64,000 nt of DNA from an uncultured Actinomycetes bacterium. Lineage in GTDB: Bacteria; Actinomycetota; Thermoleophilia; Gaiellales; Gaiellaceae. The stretch is taken from NCBI GenBank assembly GCA_963839745.1, contig CAWIWC010000010.1:508410-572409 (forward strand), in the 5' to 3' direction. Under the pieces are notes generated by a model. The model was given only the letters and a program-made list of their open reading frames with translations, made no database searches and was not told the origin of the DNA. The position numbers and the translations under genes are program-made. Below are positions 8,296 through 57,654 of the stretch, piece after piece. The first letter of the stretch is position 1; each line of letters opens with the position of its first letter.

Positions 8296-8649
8296 ATGGC
8301 TGACTCGACCACCGACACCCCGGTCCTCGACCTGCTCGCAAGCATGACCGCGGACTCGATCGAGGCTTCGGGTCTCGACCCGGAGACGCTCATGCTCGTT
8401 CGCATCGCCGCGCTCGCCGCGGTCGATGCCCCGCCAGTCTCGTATGCGCTGAACCTGCGAGCGGCAGGCGCGGCCGGAATCGACTCTGAGCAGGTCCGCG
8501 GCGTCTTTGCCGCGATCGCTCCGATCGTCGGCACGGCCCGGGTCGCGTCTGCGACGGGCAACATCGTCAAGGCGATCGCGCTCCAGATCGAGGTCGCCGA
8601 GCTCGAGGACGAAGCCGCCCTGGACGAGGCCGACCTCAACGACCAGTAA
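8296..8649 (+). CDS. Carboxymuconolactone decarboxylase (CMD) family protein, second copy
   Basis: The ATG at 8296 is preceded by AAAGGAGAG. The sequence MADSTTDTPVLDLLASMTADSIEASGLDPETLMLVRIAALAAV... is CMD-like. It is divergent from the LuxR-type gene. Confidence 0.65.
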   Translation: MADSTTDTPVLDLLASMTADSIEASGLDPETLMLVRIAALAAVDAPPVSYALNLRAAGAAGIDSEQVRGVFAAIAPIVGTARVASATGNIVKAIALQIEVAELEDEAALDEADLNDQ

Positions 8650-8728
8650 ACCGAGCGTGGCGCCGGCGAGCCGCCGTCCTCGGGCCGCGCGGCTGGCACG
8701 GCCCTCGCACCAATCCAAGGAGGCGACA

Positions 8729-9205
8729 GTGAACTCGAATCGCATCATGACCCGCCGTTTCGGAGCTGTCCTCGTTACTGCCCTCATGGTCATGGTCACG
8801 GCCCTCGGCTGTGCCTCCGACGACGAAGACAGCGCAACGACCGAGGCGGCGCCGAGTACCGCCGCTTCCGGCACCGGCACGGTCGACGAGGGCGTCGACA
8901 TCCAGGAGGCTCAGGCGCAGCTCTGTTCCGGGCTATCGGATCTCGAGGCGGACCTGACGGAAGTCTCCGCCGGCGAGTCAGAGGTCGGCGCAGACCTGCG
9001 TGCGCGTCTCGCAACCTTTGCGGCGGCTCTCGAGGCCGGCGCCCAAACTCTCACCACCGCCGGCGCGGCGGACGCGGCGACCGCCGCCGAGAACCTTGCG
9101 TCCAACCTGGAGTCGCTCTCCACCTCGAGTGGGGAGGACGCCCAGGCGCGCGCAGGCGAGGCAGCCGACGGGGCACAGCAGCTGACGGATGCCCTGGAGT
9201 GTTAG
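8729..9205 (+). CDS. Putative lipoprotein (Ala/Glu-rich helical)
   Basis: The GTG at 8729 is preceded by AAGGAGG. A signal peptide with a lipobox is present (VTALMVMVTALGC). Confidence 0.55.
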   Translation: MNSNRIMTRRFGAVLVTALMVMVTALGCASDDEDSATTEAAPSTAASGTGTVDEGVDIQEAQAQLCSGLSDLEADLTEVSAGESEVGADLRARLATFAAALEAGAQTLTTAGAADAATAAENLASNLESLSTSSGEDAQARAGEAADGAQQLTDALEC

Positions 9206-9453: not shown

Positions 9454-10393
9454 ATGAGCGACATCGAGGATCAACGGCTCGAACCCGCGGAGGGCGGCCA
9501 GGCGGCCGACGCTGGCCGCAGCGAGCGAGCCCGCGCCAAGCTCGGCGCCGCGAAGGAGAGCGCCAAGGGCGCGAGCGAACGGCACGTGGCCCTCGCAGTT
9601 CCGATCCGGGCGGTGGAACGAAACCGGCGTGTCGCGGCGAGCGTCCTCGCCGGGGGACTGGCGTACAGGTTCTTCCTGTGGCTGCTGCCGTTCGGCTTGA
9701 TCGTCGGCGGCGCTCTCGGCCTCAGCGACGCTAAAGACACCGAGGACGCGGTCGAGGGCGGCGGCGTCCCGGCGGCGATCTCCAACGCGATCGGCGATGC
9801 CTCGCGTGCCGCCGAGTCCAACTCGTGGTGGCTCTTCGCGGTCGGAGTGCCCCTTCTCTTCTGGGCGGGTTTCACAGGCGCCAAGGCGGTAGTGCTCGTT
9901 CATTCGCTCGTCTGGGACGAGCCTCCCTCGAGGGCCAAGCCGGTGGGGTCACTTGTGTTCACGGGCATGCTCTGTGCGGCCATCATCACCGTCGCGCTCA
10001 GCTCGTGGTTCGCCGACGTCGCGTGGCACGGCCTCCTGGCGGCCGCGCTCACGATCGCACCGCTCACCGGGCTGTGGCTCTGGGTTTCACTTCACCTTCC
10101 GCACCGGGACGCTCCCTGGCGGGCGCTGCTGCCCGGCGCAGCTCCTCATCGGGGTCGGAGTCCCACTGCTCAGCGGACTGGTCGACGCCTTCCTCGTGGA
10201 TGAGCTCGCGAAGTCGACCTCGCTGTACGGCGGTCTCGGCGCCGCGACGACGCTCATCTTCTTCGTCTACCTCCTCGGGATCCTCGTCGTCAGCTCACCG
10301 GTGCTGAACAGCTCGCTCTACGAGGAGCTCCTCAGGAAGGGCGAGCAGGCCGAGGGCGAGGCGACGGGCTCGCCGGGGGCTTCACCCGCATGA
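9454..10393 (+). pseudogene. YihY/BrkB family membrane protein, copy 2 (frame change near nt 10140)
   Basis: The N-terminal 230 aa lie in the 9316..10203 frame (AGGLAYRFFLWLLPF). The C-terminus continues in the 9953..10393 frame (QLLIGVGVPLLSGLVDAFLVDELAKSTSLYGGLGAATTLIFF), colinear with copy 1. Confidence 0.7.
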
Positions 10394-10412
10394 AACCGGA
10401 GGACTGAGAACG

Positions 10413-10873
10413 ATGAACGAGGACCCCGCCGACACTCCGAACGAGACGAGGCTCGAACGGTGGCTCGAGCGTTGGGTGGCCCGCGCCGTGACGCCGCGGG
10501 GGGCCGCCGTCGTGATCGCCTCCGCGACGGTCGCGGATCACCGTCCCCGCCGGGACCCTGATGACGGTCCTCGACCGCGAGAACTACCCGACGATCGGCT
10601 CCGGGCTGTGGTGGGCGGTGCAGACGACCACGACGGTCGGGTACGGCGACAACGTTCCGACGACCTAGCGCCGGACGGTTCCTCGCCGCGTTCGTCATGC
10701 TGGTCGGCATCGGCTTCCTGACCGTCATCACCGCCGCGATCACGAGCACATTCGTGTCGCGCTCGCGCCTCGAGCCGGCCGACTCGGACGCCGAGACCTC
10801 GATTGCCGAGCAGCTCCGTCAGATCAACGCGCGGCTCGAGCGAATCGAGACGCGCAAGAGCGATCCCTCGTAA
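10413..10873 (+). pseudogene. Small 2-TM (KcsA-like) potassium channel, two frame disruptions
   Basis: The selectivity filter is intact (WWAVQTTTTVGYGD) and is followed by GRFLAAFVMLVGIGFLTVITAAITSTF in another frame. The frame changes near 10535 and near 10665, and a TAG sits right after the filter in the filter frame. Confidence 0.7.
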
Positions 10874-11001
10874 CGCCTGCTGAGGGCGCCCGCTCGAGCG
10901 AGCGTGTGGATCGCGTAGGACGATGGCGAGGCCGAGCCGTCGTAGCGACCCAGGCCAGCCTGTCGCCGTACGCGAAGACGGCACCCATCGAGAGCTGCAC
11001 G

Positions 11002-49388: not shown

Positions 49389-49848
49389 GACTCAAGCCAC
49401 GATCCACACTACACAGGGCGCCGTCTCGGTCGAGCTCTTCGACGAGGACGCCCCCAAGACGGTCGAGAACTTCACGAAGCTCGCAGGCGAGGGCTTCTAC
49501 GACGGCATCACCTTCCACCGCGTCATCCCCGACTTCATGGTCCAGGGCGGCTGCCCCCGCGGGGACGGCACGGGCGGGCCCGGCTACGAGTTCGAGGACG
49601 AGCAGAACCAGCACCGCGTCGTCCGGGGCGCCCTCGCGATGGCGAACCGCGGGCCGAACACGAACGGCAGCCAGTTCTTCATCGTCACGACGGAGGCCGC
49701 GCCGTGGCTCGACGGCAAGCACACGGTCTTCGGCCGCGTCACCGAGGGCATGGACGTCGTCGACGCCATGTCCGAGGCCCCGCGCGATGCGAACGACCGC
49801 CCGCGCGAGACGATCTCGATCGACCGGATCGACCTGCCCGCGGGCTAG
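49387..49848 (+). CDS. Cyclophilin-type peptidyl-prolyl cis-trans isomerase
   Basis: The 153-aa ORF reads [28 protein letters not shown] ... [19 protein letters not shown] ... [11 protein letters not shown]. Confidence 0.92.
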
Positions 49849-52559
49849 GCCGCGCGGCCCTCTGGGGCCGCGTCTTCGAGGGCGAGGAAGACCTCTACGA
49901 CCTTCGGGTCGAACTGCGTGCCCGCCGCCTCCTCGAGGCGCCGGCGCGCTTCGGCCTCCGGCAGCCGCTTCCGGTACGCGCGGTCGCTCGTCATCGCGTG
50001 GTAGGCGTCGCAGACGAGGATCACGCGCGCCTCGAGCGGGATCTCCTCGCCGGCGAGGCCGTTGGGATAGCCGCTGCCGTCCCAGTGCTCGTGGCAGTGG
50101 AGAACGATCTCGCAGACCTCCTCGAGCCGCTCGATGGGCGCGAGGATGCGGGCTCCCAGCTCGGGGTGGAGCCGCACGATCTGCCACTCCTCGTCGTCGA
50201 GCGGGCCCGGCTTGGTCAGGATCGCCTCCGGGATTCCGATCTTCCCGATGTCGTGGAAGAGGGCGCCGAGCTCGAGTCGCTTCAGTGTCCGTGCGTCGAG
50301 GCCGAGCGCGCGGCCGACGTGCAGGGAGAGGTCGCTGATCCAGCGGGCGTGGGAAGACGTGTACTCGTCGTTCGCCTCGAGCGCGTTCGCGAGTGCCTCG
50401 ACCGTCGAGAGGAACGTGCGCTCGAGGCTCTCGAAGTTGGAGACGTTGGCGATCGCGAGCTTGACCTGGTGCGCGACGCCCGCCAGCAACCGCATGCTGC
50501 GATCGTCGAACGTGTCCTCCGGTCCGTCACCCCTGACGAGGATGCAGCCGATCCTGTCCGAGTCGATCCGCAAGGGGGCGATGGCGATCGGGGACTCTCC
50601 GAGATCCCGGCTTCCGCCCGCGACCGGGGTCGAGATCGTCTGGAACGGCTCGGCCCCTCCGAGGATCTCGCGCGCTCGTTCGTGCGGGAACGGGATCGAC
50701 CACAGGAGCGCGGCGTCCTCGGGCTCGAAGCCGACGAGCGCGCGGAGACGGAGATCCTCGCCGGCGCTCTCCTGGAGCCAGAGCGACGACCGTGGGCGAT
50801 GGAGCAGGCGCGCGGACAGCTCGACCGCGCGCTCGAGGACCTCGTCCAGCGACTCGGCGGCCGCCAGCTTGCGGCTGAAGTCGAGCAGCGCGTTGGCGAT
50901 CTCGAGCGAGTCCTTGGCCCTATGCGCCTCGAGACGCTCTGCCTCGTAGAGCCGCGCGTTCTCGACCGCGACGGAGGCGTGCCCGCCGAGCACCTCGAGG
51001 AGGCGCACGTCGTCCTCGTCGAACTGGCCCACGCCGAGCTTGGAGATCACGACTGCGCCGATCACGCGCGCGCCGTAGCGGAGCGGGACGGCGATCATCG
51101 ATTCGTCCACGTCGTCCGTGCCGGGAATCGTCTCCGCAAAATCGCAGTCGAGCGCGTTGTCGAGCAGGATCGACTCGCCGGTGCTCGCAGCCCGGCCCGT
51201 GATCCCCTCGCCGATCTTGCAGCGGAGCGCCTCGACGCTCTCCTCGGCGTACTCGTCGAGGTCGCCGCGCCAGGCGACGGGGATGAGGTCGTCGCCGTCG
51301 ACCACGTAGAGGCGGCAGCTGTGGTAGTCGACGAGCATCCGGAGCTCGTCCACGATCGTCTCGCCGATCTGGCGGACGTCGTTCAGCCGGTTCAGCTTTC
51401 CGGCAAGGCTCTGGAGCATCTTCAGGTGTGCGATCGAGCGGACGTCGCGACGAGCGGAGCCCGGCTCCGGGCGCTCGCCGCCGTGCTCCTCGAAGAGCAC
51501 TGCCTGGCTCTTGCCGCGGGCCTTGGCCGTCATCATCGCGATCTCTGCGCAGGCGACGAGCTCGCGAGGGTTCATCGCGTGCTCCGGGCCCTGCGCGATG
51601 CCGATCGAGACGGAGAGGCGGCCGGCGGGCTCGATGTCGGTCTCGGCCAGGCGGTCGGTGATCCTGCGTGCGAGGCCGAGGGCGTCGCCTGCGTCGCAGG
51701 AGGCCATGATCACGCCGAACTCCTCGCCGCCGAGGCGGCAGACGACGTCCGAGACGCGGACGGTGCTCTGGAGCACGTCGGCCAGCTGGAGGAGCACCTG
51801 GTCGCCGATGCCGTGCCCGTGGACGTCGTTGACGCGCTTGAAGTCGTCGATGTCGAGCATCAGGACCGCGATCGGATCGTGGGTTCTGCTCGCGCGGTTC
51901 AGCTCGGCGCGAAGGCGCTCGTGGAAGTAGCGGTGGTTGTAGAGGCCCGTGAGTGAGTCCGTCTGCGCCTGGAGCTCCAGCACGGCGCGCACCTGCGCGT
52001 TGTCGAGCGCGAGCGCGGCGGCGTCGCCGAAGCGCTTGGCGAGCTCGAACTCCTCCTCGGTGAACGTCGCACCCGGGCCGATGCGGTAGACGTTCAGGGC
52101 GCCCTTGACGGTTCCGCGGGCGACGAGGGGCACCGAGATGAGCGCCTCCTGCTCGTCCACGGGCGTCCCGGGGACGGTCTTGACGCGCGGGTCCAGGCGA
52201 GCGTCGTTGACGAGCTGCGGCTCGAGATGGTCGATCGCCCAGCCGGTGATGCCCTCACCGAGGAGCGGCCGTGAGCTCATGACCTCCTCGGCCCAGCGGT
52301 CGCGCGCCATGACCGGGATGAGAACCCGCCGCGCCTCGTCCGCCTGGTAGATCGTGAAGGCGTCGTACGGGATGACGTCGGCGAGGCTGTCGGCGATGCG
52401 CTCGAGCACCGTCGTGTGCGTCTGCTCCGAGAGCACCTCGTGGAAGACGTCCGCGAGACGACGGTAGGAGTCGACGAGCGCGTCCGGGCGCACGGGCGAC
52501 TCCGGGTCGGTCGCCTCGACCGCCTCGAACAACGGGCTTTTCACCTCTCTGAGTTCCAC
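49845..52559 (-). CDS. Multidomain c-di-GMP signalling protein: GAF - GGDEF (GGEEF) - GAF - GAF - HD-GYP
   Basis: The 904-aa intact ORF has [13 protein letters not shown]...[11 protein letters not shown] (an active-site-type GGDEF domain). The C-terminal HARWISDLS...[13 protein letters not shown]...[15 protein letters not shown] is HD-GYP. Confidence 0.88.
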
Positions 52560-52737
52560 GCGGCCGCAGCCACCTCCTCTTCGGGGCCCTACGCCGGAGG
52601 CCCAGGGACAAATTCAACCCTTCTTGCGTAGCGGCCAACCTCCCTCCAAAGGGTGATTCGGCGCTGAGGCGCGCCTTGCCTCCCAGGGGTGCTTGAAGCA
52701 TGATGGTGGCCTTCGCCCGGCATTGAAGGAGGTAGTG

Positions 52738-52986
52738 GTGCCCCATCACTGGTGGCTCATCGAAGGCGACAACCCAGGGCCCAGGCAGCGCGCGGCCGCC
52801 GTCAAGAAGGCGGTGGACGACCTGCCGAACGTCGAGTGTAACTTCGTCGGCCGTGAGGCCAACAGCAACCGCTGGTACGCGCTGGTCTGGGTGGATCCGG
52901 GCGCCCCGGCGGACGAACTGCGGACTGCGAAGCAGGGGATCAAGGTCAGGCGCTCGCTGAAGGTCCTCGAATCGTTCGACGACTAG
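52738..52986 (+). CDS. Small protein of unknown family, 'VPHHWWLI' paralog 1 (82 aa)
   Basis: The GTG at 52738 follows GAAGGAGG. The sequence is VPHHWWLIEGDNPGPRQRAAAVKKAV...RWYALVWVD. It is a paralog of the next gene. Confidence 0.55.
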   Translation: MPHHWWLIEGDNPGPRQRAAAVKKAVDDLPNVECNFVGREANSNRWYALVWVDPGAPADELRTAKQGIKVRRSLKVLESFDD

Positions 52987-53001
52987 CCGGGAGGTGTCCA
53001 A

Positions 53002-53265
53002 GTGCCCCACCACTGGTGGCTGATCGATCCGGACAATCCGGGGCCCAAGCAGCGGGCCAAGGCTGTCCGCAAGGCGGCTCGTGAGTACGGCTGCGAGGTT
53101 GTGTTCGTCGGCCGGACCCGGAAGAACACCTGGTTCGCGCTCGTCAACGTCGAGGATCCCGATCGGGAGGACGAGGTCTACAAGGCGGTCGGCGGGCGGG
53201 GCAAGCTCTTCGATCTCGAGGGCTTCGAGCCGGAGGAGAAGAAGAAGGGCCGAGCCGGAGAGTAG
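53002..53265 (+). CDS. Small protein of unknown family, 'VPHHWWLI' paralog 2 (87 aa)
   Basis: The GTG at 53002 follows GGGAGG. The sequence is VPHHWWLIDPDNPGPKQRAKAVRKAA...TWFALVNVE, with a Lys/Glu-rich tail. Confidence 0.55.
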   Translation: MPHHWWLIDPDNPGPKQRAKAVRKAAREYGCEVVFVGRTRKNTWFALVNVEDPDREDEVYKAVGGRGKLFDLEGFEPEEKKKGRAGE

Positions 53266-53273
53266 TCCGGCGC

Positions 53274-56200
53274 CTATTCCACCGCGCTGAGGCTGGAAGC
53301 AGCCCCGACGTCGCGATAGAAGGCGTTGGCCTGGCGGCGCTCGCGGTCGGCATCGTCCGCGAGCTCCGCTGCCTCCAACTCGGCGGCGGCGCGCGAGCGC
53401 GCAAACGCTTCGTCCGGAAGGGAGCCGATCCGCGCGAAGAGCCCGGCGGCGGCCGGCCAGTCGCCGTTCCCGGCCGCGAGCGCGGCCTCGAGCCAGCGTG
53501 TCTGGGTGCGGACGCGGCTCAGCGCCTCGAGGAGCTCGTCGCCGCGATCCAGGCGGGTGAGGGCGAACGCAAGGTCCGGTAGCCAGAACGAGGCGAGCGA
53601 CGTCCCGCCGCCCTCCTCGAGCCAGAGCGCGAGCAGCTCGTCGGCGGCCTCCAACGCTGCGTCTCCCTGCCCGGCTTCGCCGCGGGCGTGAGCGTCGAAC
53701 GCGAGCACGGGGAAGAGGAGCTGCGGCGCCCCGACGGACCGTGCGACGCCGAGCGCCCTCTCGACGCTGTCGAGAGCCGCCCCGGCGCCCTCGCGCGCCA
53801 GCTGGATCTTCGCGCGGATCAGCAGGGCGTCGACCTCGTACAGCGATCCGAGCCCGCTCTCGCCGTCGACGAGCATGCCGTCGCCGAGCTCGAGGGCGCG
53901 ATCCCAGTTCCCGCGCCAGTAGTGCTCGAACATCCGCTCGACCTCCAGCCAGCGCAGCGCGAGCGCGTCGCCGAAGCGCTCGGCCGCGCGGCGGGCCTCG
54001 GCGTACAGCTCGAACGCGCGCGTGAGGTCGCCGAGGTCGGCCGTGATCGAGGCGAGGTTGTTGTAGCCGCGCGCGACCTGCGGCGAATTCGCGAGCGCAG
54101 CGACCTCGACGCTCTCTCGCAGGTCGTCCAGGCCGTCGAGGTCTCCCGTCATGACCCGCGAGAACCCCCGCGTGCTGAGCGTGTGGGCGCGAAAGTCGTC
54201 CAGCTCCAGCTCGTCGGCCATGCGGTGCGCCTCGCCCGCCGCGCTTGAGGCCTTCTCGGCCTCGTCGGCGGCCAGGTGGAAGTGCGCGCGGCTTGCGAGG
54301 ACGCGCACCTTCGACCGCGACGGCGGCCGGTCGGCGAGCAGCGCCACCGCGTGCTCGAAGTGCGACTGTGCCTCCTCGCGGCGTCCCTGGGCGATCATCA
54401 AGAGGTCGGCGAGGAGCACCTCCGCCTCGGCCGCGAGCTCGAGCTCGCCGGCCTCGAGCAGCGCGCGGGCGGCCTCCTCGAGGACGTCGGCGCCGGTCTG
54501 CTCCGCGCGGAAGAGCGCCTGTCCGTAGCGCAGGAGAAGCGGCGGTCGCTCGGAGTCGTCCTCGGGCCAGGACGCCAGCGCCTCGCGGTAGAAGCGCACC
54601 GCCGGTGCGTAGGCGGAGAGCGCGAGGGCCCGGTCGCCCGCCTCGGCGAGCGCGATGCGTGCCCGCTCGGGAAGGTCGCCGAGCCCACGGCCGGCCGCGC
54701 GCGCGAACTGGAGCGCGCTCAGATAGTGGTGCGCAATCATGTCCGCGATGTCCTCGGCGCGGTCGCCCGCGAGCGACTCGAGCCAGCCGGCCGTGCGGCG
54801 GTGCAGCTCGGCGCGCCGCGGCCGCGGGATCTGCCCGTAGGCGACATCCCGGACGAGCACGTGGCGGAAGACGAACGCGGTCTCGCCGGCGACGGACGAG
54901 CGGCGCTCGCGCCGCACGAATTCCTTGCGCTCGAGCCGCTGGAGGCCCACCTCGACCTCCGGAGGCGGCCGGTCGCTCACTGCGGCGAGCGCGCCGACCC
55001 AGAAGACCTTCCCCACGACGGCCGCGTCCTGCACGAGGGCCTTCTCCTCGCCCGCGAGGGTGTCCAGGCGGGCGGCGATGATGCCCTGGACCGTCTCCGG
55101 GAGCGGCAGGTCGGCGTCCGCACCCGTCTCGGCCAGCATGCGGACGAATTCCTCCGCGTAGAGCGGGTTGCCGCCCGCATGCGCCAGCAGCTCATCGACG
55201 CGCGCCTGCGGGACCGAGCGCTCGGCGAGGAGCGCCTGCAGGAGCTGCTCGATGTCGGAGTCCGAGAGCGGCGAGAGGGAGACGGTGAGCGCGCTGCGCT
55301 TGCCGCCGCCCCAGCCGGGGCGGCGTTCGACGAGCTCGGGGCGGGCGGTGCAGACGACGAGGATGGGAACGTCCGTGGCCCAGTCGACCAGGTGGTCGAC
55401 GAAGTCGAGGAGCCCGTCGTCGGCCCAGTGGAGGTCCTCGAAGACCAGAACGAGCGGCCGTGTCTCGGCGAGCGCCTCGAAGAAGCGGCGCCACGCCGCG
55501 AAGGCCTCGCGGCGGAGGTCGCCGCCCACCTCCTCGGGGCCTTCCAGGCCGACCAGCGGGCCGAGGTGCTCGTCCACCCACTGCGCCTCGACCTCGTCGT
55601 GCACGACCGTCGTGACCGCCGTCCCGAGCTTGGCGGCCGCCTCGTCGGAGGAGTCGGACTCGAGAATGCCTGCCTGCGCCTTGACCATCTCCCCGAGCGC
55701 CCAGAAGCTCACGCCCTCCCCGTACGGCAGCGAGCGGCCCTGGCGCCAGTTGGCGAAGACCTCGGGGTCGTCGTCGAGGGCCGCGTAGAGCTCGAACAGG
55801 AGTCGGCTCTTACCGATGCCGGGCGCGCCGACGAGGGTGACGAGCTGGGGCGCACGCTCGCGCTCGGAGCGGGCCAGCGCGTCCCGGAGGAGGCGCAGCT
55901 CCTGCTCCCGCCCGATCAGCTCGGCGCCGCCGCGGAAGGCGATGTCGACACCCAGCCGGTTTCGGGGCGCGACCACCTCCCAGACGCGGATCGGCTCGGT
56001 CTTGCCCTTGGCGGCGACCGGCTCGGCGTCGCGGTACTCGATCACATTCGAGGTCGCCCGGTAGGTGGACTCGTCGACGAGGATCCCGTCCACCGGCGCC
56101 GCGGACTGAAGGCGGGAGCACGTGTTGACGATGTCTCCGGCGGCCATCCCCTCGCCCTCGCTCGGGCGGGCGGAGAGCGCGATCATGGCCTCGCCGGTCG

Positions 56201-56693
56201 TGACGCCGATGCGGACGTGGAGGCCGAGGGCGGGATCGGCCGCGTTGAGCTCGCCGATCGCCTCGCGGACCGCGATCGCAGCGCGCACGCCGCGCTCGGG
56301 GTCGTCCTCGTGGGCCAGCGGGGCGCCGAAGAGCGCCACGACCGCGTCGCCGATGAACTTCTCCACGGTGCCGCCGTAGCTCTCGAGCTCGGTCTTCAGG
56401 CGGGCGTGGTACGGCGCCAGCATCCGGCGCACGTCCTCGGGGTCGAGCTGCTCGGCGCGGCCGGTGAAGCCGACGAGGTCGGCGAAGAGCACCGTGACGA
56501 CCTTGCGCTCCTCGAGGATCGGCGGCTGGTTCTCGCCGGGCTCGAAGGCGGCCCCGCACGCGGTACAGAAGGGCAGGCCGAGAGCCACGACCTCGCCGCA
56601 CGTCCCGCAGGCGCGCCCGAGCTGGAGGCCGCAGCTCCCGCAGAACAGCGCGCCGGGGCGGTTCTCGAAGCTACAAGACGCACATTCGGCCAT
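53274..56693 (-). CDS. Zinc-ribbon + class III adenylate/guanylate cyclase + AAA/STAND ATPase + TPR-like repeat protein (canonical order, intact)
   Basis: I chose the ATG at 56693. Domain evidence, in order:
- zinc ribbon: CASCSFENRPGALFCGSCG...CGTCGEVV...FCTACG;
- cyclase: VTVLFADLVGFTGRAE...EKFIGDAVVALFGAP...GDIVNTCSRLQ;
- Walker A: GAPGIGKSRLLFEL;
- Walker B: LVLVFEDLHWAD;
- a long helical repeat C-terminus. Confidence 0.88.
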   Translation of the reverse strand: MAECASCSFENRPGALFCGSCGLQLGRACGTCGEVVALGLPFCTACGAAFEPGENQPPILEERKVVTVLFADLVGFTGRAEQLDPEDVRRMLAPYHARLKTELESYGGTVEKFIGDAVVALFGAPLAHEDDPERGVRAAIAVREAIGELNAADPALGLHVRIGVTTGEAMIALSARPSEGEGMAAGDIVNTCSRLQSAAPVDGILVDESTYRATSNVIEYRDAEPVAAKGKTEPIRVWEVVAPRNRLGVDIAFRGGAELIGREQELRLLRDALARSERERAPQLVTLVGAPGIGKSRLLFELYAALDDDPEVFANWRQGRSLPYGEGVSFWALGEMVKAQAGILESDSSDEAAAKLGTAVTTVVHDEVEAQWVDEHLGPLVGLEGPEEVGGDLRREAFAAWRRFFEALAETRPLVLVFEDLHWADDGLLDFVDHLVDWATDVPILVVCTARPELVERRPGWGGGKRSALTVSLSPLSDSDIEQLLQALLAERSVPQARVDELLAHAGGNPLYAEEFVRMLAETGADADLPLPETVQGIIAARLDTLAGEEKALVQDAAVVGKVFWVGALAAVSDRPPPEVEVGLQRLERKEFVRRERRSSVAGETAFVFRHVLVRDVAYGQIPRPRRAELHRRTAGWLESLAGDRAEDIADMIAHHYLSALQFARAAGRGLGDLPERARIALAEAGDRALALSAYAPAVRFYREALASWPEDDSERPPLLLRYGQALFRAEQTGADVLEEAARALLEAGELELAAEAEVLLADLLMIAQGRREEAQSHFEHAVALLADRPPSRSKVRVLASRAHFHLAADEAEKASSAAGEAHRMADELELDDFRAHTLSTRGFSRVMTGDLDGLDDLRESVEVAALANSPQVARGYNNLASITADLGDLTRAFELYAEARRAAERFGDALALRWLEVERMFEHYWRGNWDRALELGDGMLVDGESGLGSLYEVDALLIRAKIQLAREGAGAALDSVERALGVARSVGAPQLLFPVLAFDAHARGEAGQGDAALEAADELLALWLEEGGGTSLASFWLPDLAFALTRLDRGDELLEALSRVRTQTRWLEAALAAGNGDWPAAAGLFARIGSLPDEAFARSRAAAELEAAELADDADRERRQANAFYRDVGAASSLSAVE

Positions 56694-57654
56694 GACGCGA
56701 ACTAGTGTAGGGAGGTTGCAGGCCGAGAACGCGCCGCGCCCCGGTCTCGCCGAGGTCATCGCCGTGTGGACGGGCTTCGGCCTCCTCGCGCTGGCGATTC
56801 TCGTCACGTACGCACGCCTGCCGCTCGACGAGCTCTACAACGTCAGCGGGACCGGTTTCGAGGCCGGCGCGGGCCGTGTGCTCGTCTTCGCCGGCTTTCC
56901 GACCGCGCTCGTGGCCATTGCGGTCCTGGCCGTCGTCGTCGACCGGCTGCGGACGCGGTGGGTGTCCGCCTTGGCCGTCGTCGCCGCCGTCCTCTGCGCC
57001 ACCGTCGCCTGGCCGGGCGTCGTCGAGCAGGGCGACCTCGACGCGAAGCCGGCGAACGCGTTCGCCGCCGTGGGCACGCTCATCGCGCTCGCCCTCACGA
57101 TCCTCGCGCTCACGCGGGGCGGGATCGGCTACCGGCGGCCCTTCGGGGGCGGCTGGGACATCGCACGTCTCGTCCTGGCGATCGTCGTCGTGCTCGCCGC
57201 GATCCCGTGGATCGCCGCGGATCTGGGCTTCTACCTCGACGACGTCCCCGGGCTCGGGTCGGTCTTCCTCACGGGTGTCCTCCGGCCGGAGCCGGGCCAT
57301 CCGACGCTCACCGCCGTCCATCTGGGCCATCACCACGGCTTCGACGGGACGATCCTGGCGCTCTCCGCGATTCTGCTCTCCCGCACGGTCTGCATGCTGC
57401 GTTCCGGCTTCCTGCGCACCGGGTATCGGTTCTACGTGTCGCTGATGCTCGTCTACGGCCTCGCGAACGCGCTCCAGGACTTCTGGCTCGAGCAGCTCGT
57501 GAAGCGCGGAGCGACCTCGCTCGAGATTCCGACCCTCACGGTCCCGGACGCCTCGCCGGCCTGGGCGGCGCTTCTTGCAGCGGCTCTCCTCATCCACTTG
57601 GCAGCCGGGCGCGTAGAAAGGTTGGAAACGTCATCCCAGGAAGGAGTCCCATGA
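56692..57654 (+). CDS. Polytopic membrane protein, function unknown (start uncertain)
   Basis: This is the frame of ORF 56464..57654. The first ATG (56692) overlaps the divergent cyclase start (CATG), and later GTG starts are possible. The protein has ~8 hydrophobic helices and the motif HLGHHHGFDG. Confidence 0.5.
   Translation: MTRTSVGRLQAENAPRPGLAEVIAVWTGFGLLALAILVTYARLPLDELYNVSGTGFEAGAGRVLVFAGFPTALVAIAVLAVVVDRLRTRWVSALAVVAAVLCATVAWPGVVEQGDLDAKPANAFAAVGTLIALALTILALTRGGIGYRRPFGGGWDIARLVLAIVVVLAAIPWIAADLGFYLDDVPGLGSVFLTGVLRPEPGHPTLTAVHLGHHHGFDGTILALSAILLSRTVCMLRSGFLRTGYRFYVSLMLVYGLANALQDFWLEQLVKRGATSLEIPTLTVPDASPAWAALLAAALLIHLAAGRVERLETSSQEGVP

Follow-up and report, generated by a model that had tools for sequence, protein, structure and literature searches.

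Two small paralogous genes next to a cyclase-STAND gene define an undescribed protein family of the Gaiellaceae with a predicted ferredoxin-like fold

The genome of an uncultured bacterium of the family Gaiellaceae (assembly GCA_963839745.1) contains two adjacent small genes, orfA and orfB, that encode paralogous proteins. The genes are located in a stretch of 64,000 nucleotides (contig CAWIWC010000010.1, positions 508,410 to 572,409), which is termed the window and to which all coordinates refer. They occupy the interval between a divergently oriented gene for a GAF-GGDEF-GAF-HD-GYP protein and a convergent gene that encodes a multidomain nucleotide cyclase with a STAND ATPase module, hereafter called the cyclase-STAND gene. 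The features of this interval are the following:

49845 to 52559, minus strand: GAF-GGDEF-GAF-HD-GYP gene, 904 amino acids, domains according to Pfam; a frequent but dispensable divergent neighbour
52725 to 52732, plus strand: Shine-Dalgarno sequence GAAGGAGG of orfA, read from the sequence
52738 to 52986, plus strand: orfA, 82 amino acids, GTG start at 52738, TAG stop at 52984-52986; the upstream paralogue, designated A1 type
52989 to 52994, plus strand: Shine-Dalgarno sequence GGGAGG of orfB, located within the 15-nt spacer between orfA and orfB
53002 to 53265, plus strand: orfB, 87 amino acids, GTG start at 53002, TAG stop at 53263-53265; the downstream paralogue, designated B type
53274 to 56807, minus strand: convergent cyclase-STAND gene with double zinc ribbon (DZR), class III cyclase (Guanylate_cyc), AAA_16 STAND ATPase and TPR domains according to Pfam

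The deduced proteins share 40 identities over 81 positions (49%, E = 2e-20 in BLASTP), comprising the motif VPHHWWLI-xx-DNPGP-(R/K)-QRA-x-AV-(K/R)-KA as well as FVGR and W(Y/F)ALV strands. A gap of 178 nt separates orfA from the divergent GAF-GGDEF-GAF-HD-GYP gene, and the stop codon of orfB is 8 nt away from that of the convergent cyclase-STAND gene, the product of which comprises 1177 amino acids when the longest open reading frame (ORF) is considered. The initial annotation, made from the letters of the window, had described GTG-initiated tandem paralogues with their own Shine-Dalgarno sequences and the two flanking gaps; the coordinates, the sequences, the degree of identity and both distances were confirmed. 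Within the 3.2-Mb genome, which is assembled in 19 contigs, orfA and orfB are the only two copies of the family.

Long antisense ORFs overlap the region and might suggest that orfA and orfB are spurious frames, kept open by the high GC content of the genome. One of them, located at positions 52255 to 53013 on the minus strand and specifying 252 amino acids, reaches over both small genes and is rich in Arg, Pro and Gly; it is a high-GC artefact, as is typical of DNA with the 69% GC content of the window. The search of 5.8 billion proteins yielded 25 homologues of orfA, with E-values as low as 6e-45, and 53 of orfB, all of them annotated as hypothetical and those with a named source belonging to metagenome-assembled genomes (MAGs) of the Gaiellaceae. 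Altogether, about 75 homologues of the family were found, and every genome considered in this study is an uncultured MAG or a metagenome contig. In sets of orthologues, the median ratio of nonsynonymous to synonymous substitution rates (dN/dS) was 0.23 for the B type (n = 10) and 0.20 for both the A1 type and a second upstream type, A2, and substitutions at third codon positions were about twice as frequent as those at first or second positions. The GC content by codon position was 0.67/0.43/0.89 for orfA and 0.70/0.41/0.88 for orfB, a coding-type pattern. An ATG, GTG or TTG codon is located immediately 5' of a Pro codon in all of the approximately 47 members examined at 29 loci, and nearly all of these relatives possess a GGAGG-type Shine-Dalgarno sequence 5 to 9 nt ahead of the start. 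On the basis of this arrangement in the relatives, position 52738 was assigned as the start of orfA in preference to the in-frame GTG at 52735, 3 nt upstream, and the TTG at 52693. These data, along with the confidently predicted folds described below, indicate that orfA and orfB are real genes under purifying selection, far beyond chance, as had been proposed initially. The view that they are spurious frames is effectively refuted by the conservation of starts and Shine-Dalgarno sequences together with the dN/dS and codon-position data, and its remaining probability is negligible.

Several relatives are represented in the databases by copies that are frameshifted or run on into the following gene or the strand opposite the cyclase-STAND gene (P0004, P0005, P0008 and P0079; the upstream copy of L020 at 9726-10022; L028 at 9716-10936). 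These copies appear to result from assembly or indel errors in the MAGs and not from natural fusion.

The members of the family comprise about 75 to 110 amino acids. The initial annotation had called the N-terminal motif invariant, which holds for the comparison of orfA with orfB; throughout the family, Pro2 alone is invariant in every alignment, with Leu47 or Trp5 being invariant in some alignments only. Conservation in at least 90% of the members was observed for His4, Asn12, Pro13, Arg18, Phe35, Gly37 and Val48. This pattern defines a signature that begins with Met-Pro-x-His-Trp at the very N-terminus and continues with a D-N-P-G-P-x-x-R loop and two strands, F-V-G and W/Y-x-A-L-V. A cytoplasmic location is proposed as the best explanation for the family proteins. 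In keeping with the initial annotation, in which no family could be assigned, neither protein revealed a match in Pfam at E <= 10, in the NCBIfam scan or with the PADLOC models of anti-phage defence components, and a sequence-profile search of the PDB provided nothing meaningful. The PADLOC analysis did assign the cyclase-STAND protein of the window to the PycC models, through its cyclase domain only. When 31 aligned members were individually scanned against Pfam, scattered sub-threshold matches were obtained exclusively. The GGDEF_2 profile (PF17853) was detected below threshold in four of the 31 members (best E = 0.097), and the palm of cyclase and GGDEF domains is likewise ferredoxin-like. 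Membership in the GYD domain family (PF08734) was rejected, as two of the 31 members matched below the gathering score with a best E-value of 0.022. Both weak matches are probably noise or a generic echo of the fold. Accordingly, orfA and orfB represent an undescribed family of small proteins that is recognisable by its sharply defined N-terminus and is predicted to adopt a ferredoxin-like fold.

The distribution of this family is narrow. When 1.84 billion cluster representatives were searched with a profile, 21 clusters matched, and scanning each GTDB species through one genome yielded 11 loci, with all taxon-named ones belonging to the Gaiellaceae. The family is present in six of 201 genomes of the order, and credible matches were detected in approximately 16 of 301 genomes of the bacterial family, assigned to the genera g1, g14, g76, g82, g20 and g80. 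The family is thus restricted to the Gaiellaceae, where it is found in MAGs and metagenome contigs that carry orthologues of the same neighbouring genes.

The survey of homologues showed that they do not always occur in tandem. Many genomes contain a single copy, among them G063, G145 and most of the distant loci, whereas pairs are present in the genus of the window and in g14, g76 and g80. In the phylogenetic tree, the B type forms one clade (support 96/98), and with it groups a second clade (100/98) consisting of the A1 type of the window. Elsewhere in this genus, the upstream slot is occupied by the very different A2 type, MPHHWFRVAPGA... (100/100), and the second copies of g14 and g76 constitute yet another clade. 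These separate clades of second copies indicate that duplication occurred more than once. The A2 upstream copies (L014, L022, L024, L026 and L034) carry a Lys-rich tail and show about 33% identity to orfB; the downstream B copies of A2-type loci display 72-93% identity to orfB. Judging from these sequence comparisons, the upstream slot appears to evolve or to be exchanged faster than the conserved downstream B slot.

The most prominent property of the family is its genomic linkage to the cyclase-STAND gene. The order HD-GYP gene (minus strand), small gene or genes (plus strand) and cyclase-STAND gene (minus strand) was found at 13 loci within the genus, which by itself could reflect plain synteny. 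In all loci with available context, however, the small gene adjoins a gene belonging to the zinc-ribbon/class III cyclase/AAA_16/TPR clade, apart from g80, in which the cyclase differs. Distant members from unrelated metagenome contigs, with 31-48% identity to orfB, are convergent to cyclase-STAND orthologues that are 43-71% identical, and in nine loci (L029, L030, L032, L033, L035, L036, L040, L061 and L062) the stop codons of the two genes overlap by 4 nt (CTAG, TTAG or CTAA). The HD-GYP gene is not located beside the small genes in G124 or in genus g20, the latter having genes unrelated to it in the upstream position, and the 4.2-kb contig of the g82 locus revealed no HD-GYP gene either. 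Despite this, the small gene still adjoins the 3' end of the cyclase-STAND gene in all three cases. At the G124 locus (L013; G124:C4:435001-455000), the GAF-GGDEF-HD-GYP gene is missing between a peptidyl-prolyl isomerase gene and the small genes, and the cyclase-STAND gene is apparently split or frameshifted around residues 171-254. Regarding the neighbours named in the initial annotation, the adjacency to a cyclase-STAND-TPR gene was therefore encountered at every locus examined, in two arrangements, and the GGDEF-HD-GYP gene turned out to be dispensable.

The second arrangement was observed in genus g80. Two MPHHW small genes, encoding 60-61 and 109 amino acids (L042 at 8531-9140 and L043 at 8437-9049), immediately precede, in the same orientation, a Guanylate_cyc/NB-ARC-like/TPR_12 gene, and the stop codon of the 109-aa gene falls where this cyclase gene probably starts. 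The latter encodes 857-888 amino acids, lacks a zinc ribbon and revealed no tblastn similarity to the cyclase-STAND protein of the window (E <= 1e-4). The comparison of the 109-aa protein with the family by hhalign resulted in a probability of 82% (E = 1e-5), and per-genome searches yielded E-values of 2e-5 and 1.4e-3. The small genes of g80 are thus probable, moderately supported homologues on the basis of these profile comparisons, and g80 represents a second architecture of the association between small genes and cyclase genes.

The linkage is confined to a single type of partner. Homologues of the STAND sensor region are present in 192 of the 301 genomes of the bacterial family, with up to five paralogues per genome that are 38-53% identical. 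Among 14 3' ends of such paralogues, 13 were devoid of a convergent small gene when ORFs with the pattern MP-x-(H/R)-(W/Y/L) were searched for, indicating that a single STAND clade is linked to the small genes. The exception is G216, in which a STAND gene with 53% identity faces a convergent MP-P-H-Y-W ORF with a strong Shine-Dalgarno sequence (hhalign probability 58%); this ORF is a candidate for a further diverged member. The genome of the window contains only eight or nine class III cyclase genes among roughly 3000 genes, and the repeated adjacency is therefore unexpected by chance.

The monomer structures of both proteins were predicted with AlphaFold2, the prediction envisaged in the initial annotation, and each resulted in a ferredoxin-like model. 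The orfB model, calculated with 25 sequences, has a mean predicted local distance difference test score (pLDDT) of 80.7 and the topology beta-alpha-beta-beta-alpha-beta, comprising beta1 (residues 3-8), alpha1 (15-27), beta2 (32-38), beta3 (44-49), alpha2 (53-63) and beta4 (65-72), beyond which a disordered charged tail is predicted. The orfA model (28 sequences; pLDDT 86.2, predicted template modelling score 0.75) displays the same order of elements, with beta1 at residues 3-8, alpha1 at 15-27, beta2 at 32-39, beta3 at 46-52 and alpha2 at 58-67. In these models, the Met-Pro-x-His-Trp N-terminus corresponds to the start of strand beta1, and the D-N-P-G-P-x-x-R segment provides the beta1-alpha1 loop and the helix N-cap. 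Comparison of both models with the PDB by Foldseek detected ferredoxin-like alpha+beta sandwiches only, with a best E-value of 4.4e-3 and template modelling (TM) scores of at most 0.62. The neighbours include ribosomal protein S6 and its permutants, PII/GlnK and the ACT domains of PGDH, threonine deaminase and aspartokinase, and further HMA domains, acylphosphatase, ABM, BMC shell proteins, HPPK and the nickel-binding protein SCO4226. The predicted fold class is consequently clear, with no specific structural relative.

Among these neighbours, ACT domains resemble the small proteins in their beta-alpha-beta-beta-alpha-beta topology of approximately 70-80 residues and in their occurrence with signalling or metabolic enzymes. 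The folds of ACT, HMA and acylphosphatase domains have their ligand site in the region of the beta1-alpha1 loop. The loop that binds the ligand in ACT domains corresponds to the most conserved loop of the small proteins, and by analogy the D-N-P-G-P-x-x-R loop may constitute their ligand site. On the other hand, the best Foldseek E-value for ACT domains was about 1e-2 with TM-scores of 0.46-0.50, the N-terminal Met-Pro-x-His-Trp, obligatory in the small proteins, is foreign to ACT domains, and the small proteins are stand-alone and encoded beside a STAND cyclase. Sequence profiles did not support membership in the ACT clan, since Pfam provided no such match for orfA or orfB (E <= 10) and none occurred among the weak matches of the 31 members. 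HMA domains were rejected as a family assignment: the M-x-C-x-x-C site is absent, the D-N-P-G-P loop contains no Cys, and HMA is a weak fold neighbour only.

The intergenic region upstream of orfA contains two further conserved elements:

52639 to 52658, no strand assigned: intergenic element CCTCCCTCCAAAGGGTGATT, 20 nt, between the divergent HD-GYP gene and orfA
52676 to 52704, plus strand: putative promoter-like element of orfA and orfB, TTGCCT, 17-nt spacer, CATGAT, conserved in the intergenic alignment of A1-type loci

The core of the 20-nt element, CTC-(G/C)-(A/G)-AAGGG-(T/G)-GAT, is present in 13 of 14 aligned loci, distant single-copy loci included, and the only locus without it is L013, which has no HD-GYP gene. 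The element may serve one or the other flanking gene as operator or promoter element. A strict scan for the sigma-70 consensus did not call the TTGCCT/CATGAT element, and A2-type loci carry a different conserved upstream sequence, ATGCAAGGATGCC. Scans of the region with Rfam and with promoter and terminator predictions returned nothing except one weak hairpin inside orfB, and no terminator-like hairpin was found between the convergent orfB and cyclase-STAND genes.

The invariable adjacency to the cyclase-STAND gene suggests that the orfA and orfB proteins are accessory or regulatory subunits of the cyclase-STAND-TPR protein, the most likely interpretation, to which we assign a roughly even chance. 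From it we infer a physical interaction with the STAND protein, the binding of a ligand and an effect on cyclase activity. In such a scheme, the small protein would bind a ligand or an ion via the beta1-alpha1 loop and the N-terminus and would be recognised by the TPR sensor or the NOD of the STAND protein; this recognition would shift the ATPase switch and, hence, the output of the cyclase. Paired copies might form hetero-oligomers or provide alternative inputs. A more specific version, tentative and on balance unlikely, regards the proteins as dedicated endogenous co-sensors, in which the N-terminus (Pro1-x-His3-Trp4 after removal of Met) and the loop would capture a metal or a metabolite, the loaded protein would act as the ligand of the TPR sensor, and the A1 and A2 types would diversify the signal.

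This logic has precedents in other STAND proteins. In MalT and in Avs-type STANDs, the switch is set by a separate protein that binds to the sensor or the NOD. The proposed function of orfA and orfB would be analogous to that of MalK, MalY and Aes acting on MalT and of the protein ligands of Avs-type TPR sensors, although these regulators share neither sequence nor fold with the small proteins, and none of them is a dedicated small protein whose gene adjoins that of its STAND target. A further difference is that the effector domain of the STAND protein of the window is a class III nucleotide cyclase. With respect to domain composition, the partner gene follows the cyclase-STAND-helical repeat logic of the mycobacterial-type cyclases Rv0386, Rv1358 and Rv2488c (cyclase-ATPase-TPR/LuxR; survey of actinobacterial cyclases, PMC2447327), with the difference that the protein of the window carries an N-terminal double zinc ribbon and that no LuxR helix-turn-helix domain was detected by Pfam. 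Among the titles and abstract openings returned by a literature search, none mentioned a dedicated small partner of these cyclases or described small partners of the kind found here.

Several observations weigh against a role as subunits of the cyclase-STAND protein. The wider neighbourhood, including genes for a membrane protein, a cupredoxin and a rhodanese, is syntenic too and the linkage evidence stems mostly from one bacterial family, so that part of the conservation may be phylogenetic inertia. In most loci, the small genes are convergent with the cyclase-STAND gene and are not co-transcribed with it. The independent arrangement of g80 rests on the weak homology given above (hhalign 82%; per-genome E-values of 2e-5 and 1.4e-3). 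Moreover, the structural neighbours are non-specific (E = 4e-3, TM <= 0.62), and the argument for an ACT-like ligand site is therefore one of analogy.

Alternatively, the small proteins could act downstream of the cyclase as receptors or effectors of a cyclic nucleotide, either cAMP or cyclic di-GMP, in the manner of PII-like proteins. Proteins of this type (GlnB/GlnK, SbtB, DarA/PstA) are likewise small and ferredoxin-like, bind nucleotides and regulate their partners by contact; SbtB binds cAMP, and DarA/PstA bind c-di-AMP. PII/GlnK is among the top Foldseek neighbours of orfB, the locus is flanked by a gene for a cyclic di-GMP enzyme and by a cyclase gene, and Arg18 and Asn12 at the N-terminus of alpha1 could bind phosphate. 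We nevertheless consider this function improbable, as the linkage concerns one STAND clade and not cyclases in general, and as the PII signature is absent from the sequences. Membership in PII (PF00543) was rejected for lack of a Pfam match and of a T-loop, the beta2-beta3 connection being a short hairpin of 5-6 residues, and the TM-scores to PII reached just 0.41-0.47. A similarly low probability is assigned to an autonomous function, with the adjacency to the cyclase-STAND gene representing inherited synteny. The proteins could then be small enzymes using the N-terminal Pro as base or nucleophile, like tautomerases, or copper- or nickel-binding proteins with a Pro1-x-His3 site resembling the amino-terminal Cu(II)- and Ni(II)-binding (ATCUN) motif. 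Pro2 is invariant after the start codon and His4 nearly so, and the mature N-terminus would thus read P-x-H-W if Met is removed, which is compatible with ATCUN binding as far as the sequence is concerned; Pro at position 1 is atypical of ATCUN sites. The nickel-binding ferredoxin-like SCO4226 is among the weak structural neighbours, and a cupredoxin gene belongs to the conserved neighbourhood. Proteins of the tautomerase superfamily (4-oxalocrotonate tautomerase-like) are likewise built from small subunits whose beta1 strand opens with an invariant Pro right next to the initiator Met and leads into a loop, a helix and a strand, and the length and the first beta-alpha-beta unit of the family resemble subunits of this size. 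In contrast to tautomerases, however, the small proteins are predicted to form a single-chain ferredoxin-like sandwich with two helices. The assignment to this superfamily was rejected: the N-terminal Pro is shared, whereas the profiles PF01361, PF14552 and PF14832 did not match and the predicted fold differs. No tautomerase or MIF was present among the top 50 Foldseek matches of either model, and a search of the whole genome with PF01361 found nothing, while control genomes were matched. An autonomous function is moreover difficult to reconcile with a cyclase-STAND linkage that outlasts changes of the other neighbours and recurs in a second arrangement.

The small-gene unit might finally act mainly in cis, by convergent transcription interference or as antisense RNA against the cyclase-STAND gene, with the protein being secondary. 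Such an effect would fit the close spacing of the stop codons, 8 nt in the window and overlapping by 4 nt in nine related loci, and the lack of a terminator-like hairpin between the convergent genes. The strong purifying selection on the protein and the confidently predicted fold argue against it, as do the g80 genes, which are co-directional with the cyclase-STAND gene, and we regard this reading as very improbable.

The family is limited to a single uncultured lineage of soil bacteria, and its proposed function is deduced from genomic context only. It is a new family with a sharp N-terminal signature that is suitable for addition to family databases. To our knowledge, the signals that activate actinobacterial multidomain cyclase-STAND-TPR proteins, of the Rv0386 type in mycobacteria, are largely unknown. 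If the interpretation of the small proteins as co-sensors were true, they would represent a two-component input of the type 'adaptor plus STAND' that has not been described for bacterial cyclase-STAND proteins. With a small foldable protein always encoded against one STAND clade, the question of what feeds or restrains such a sensor becomes concretely testable.

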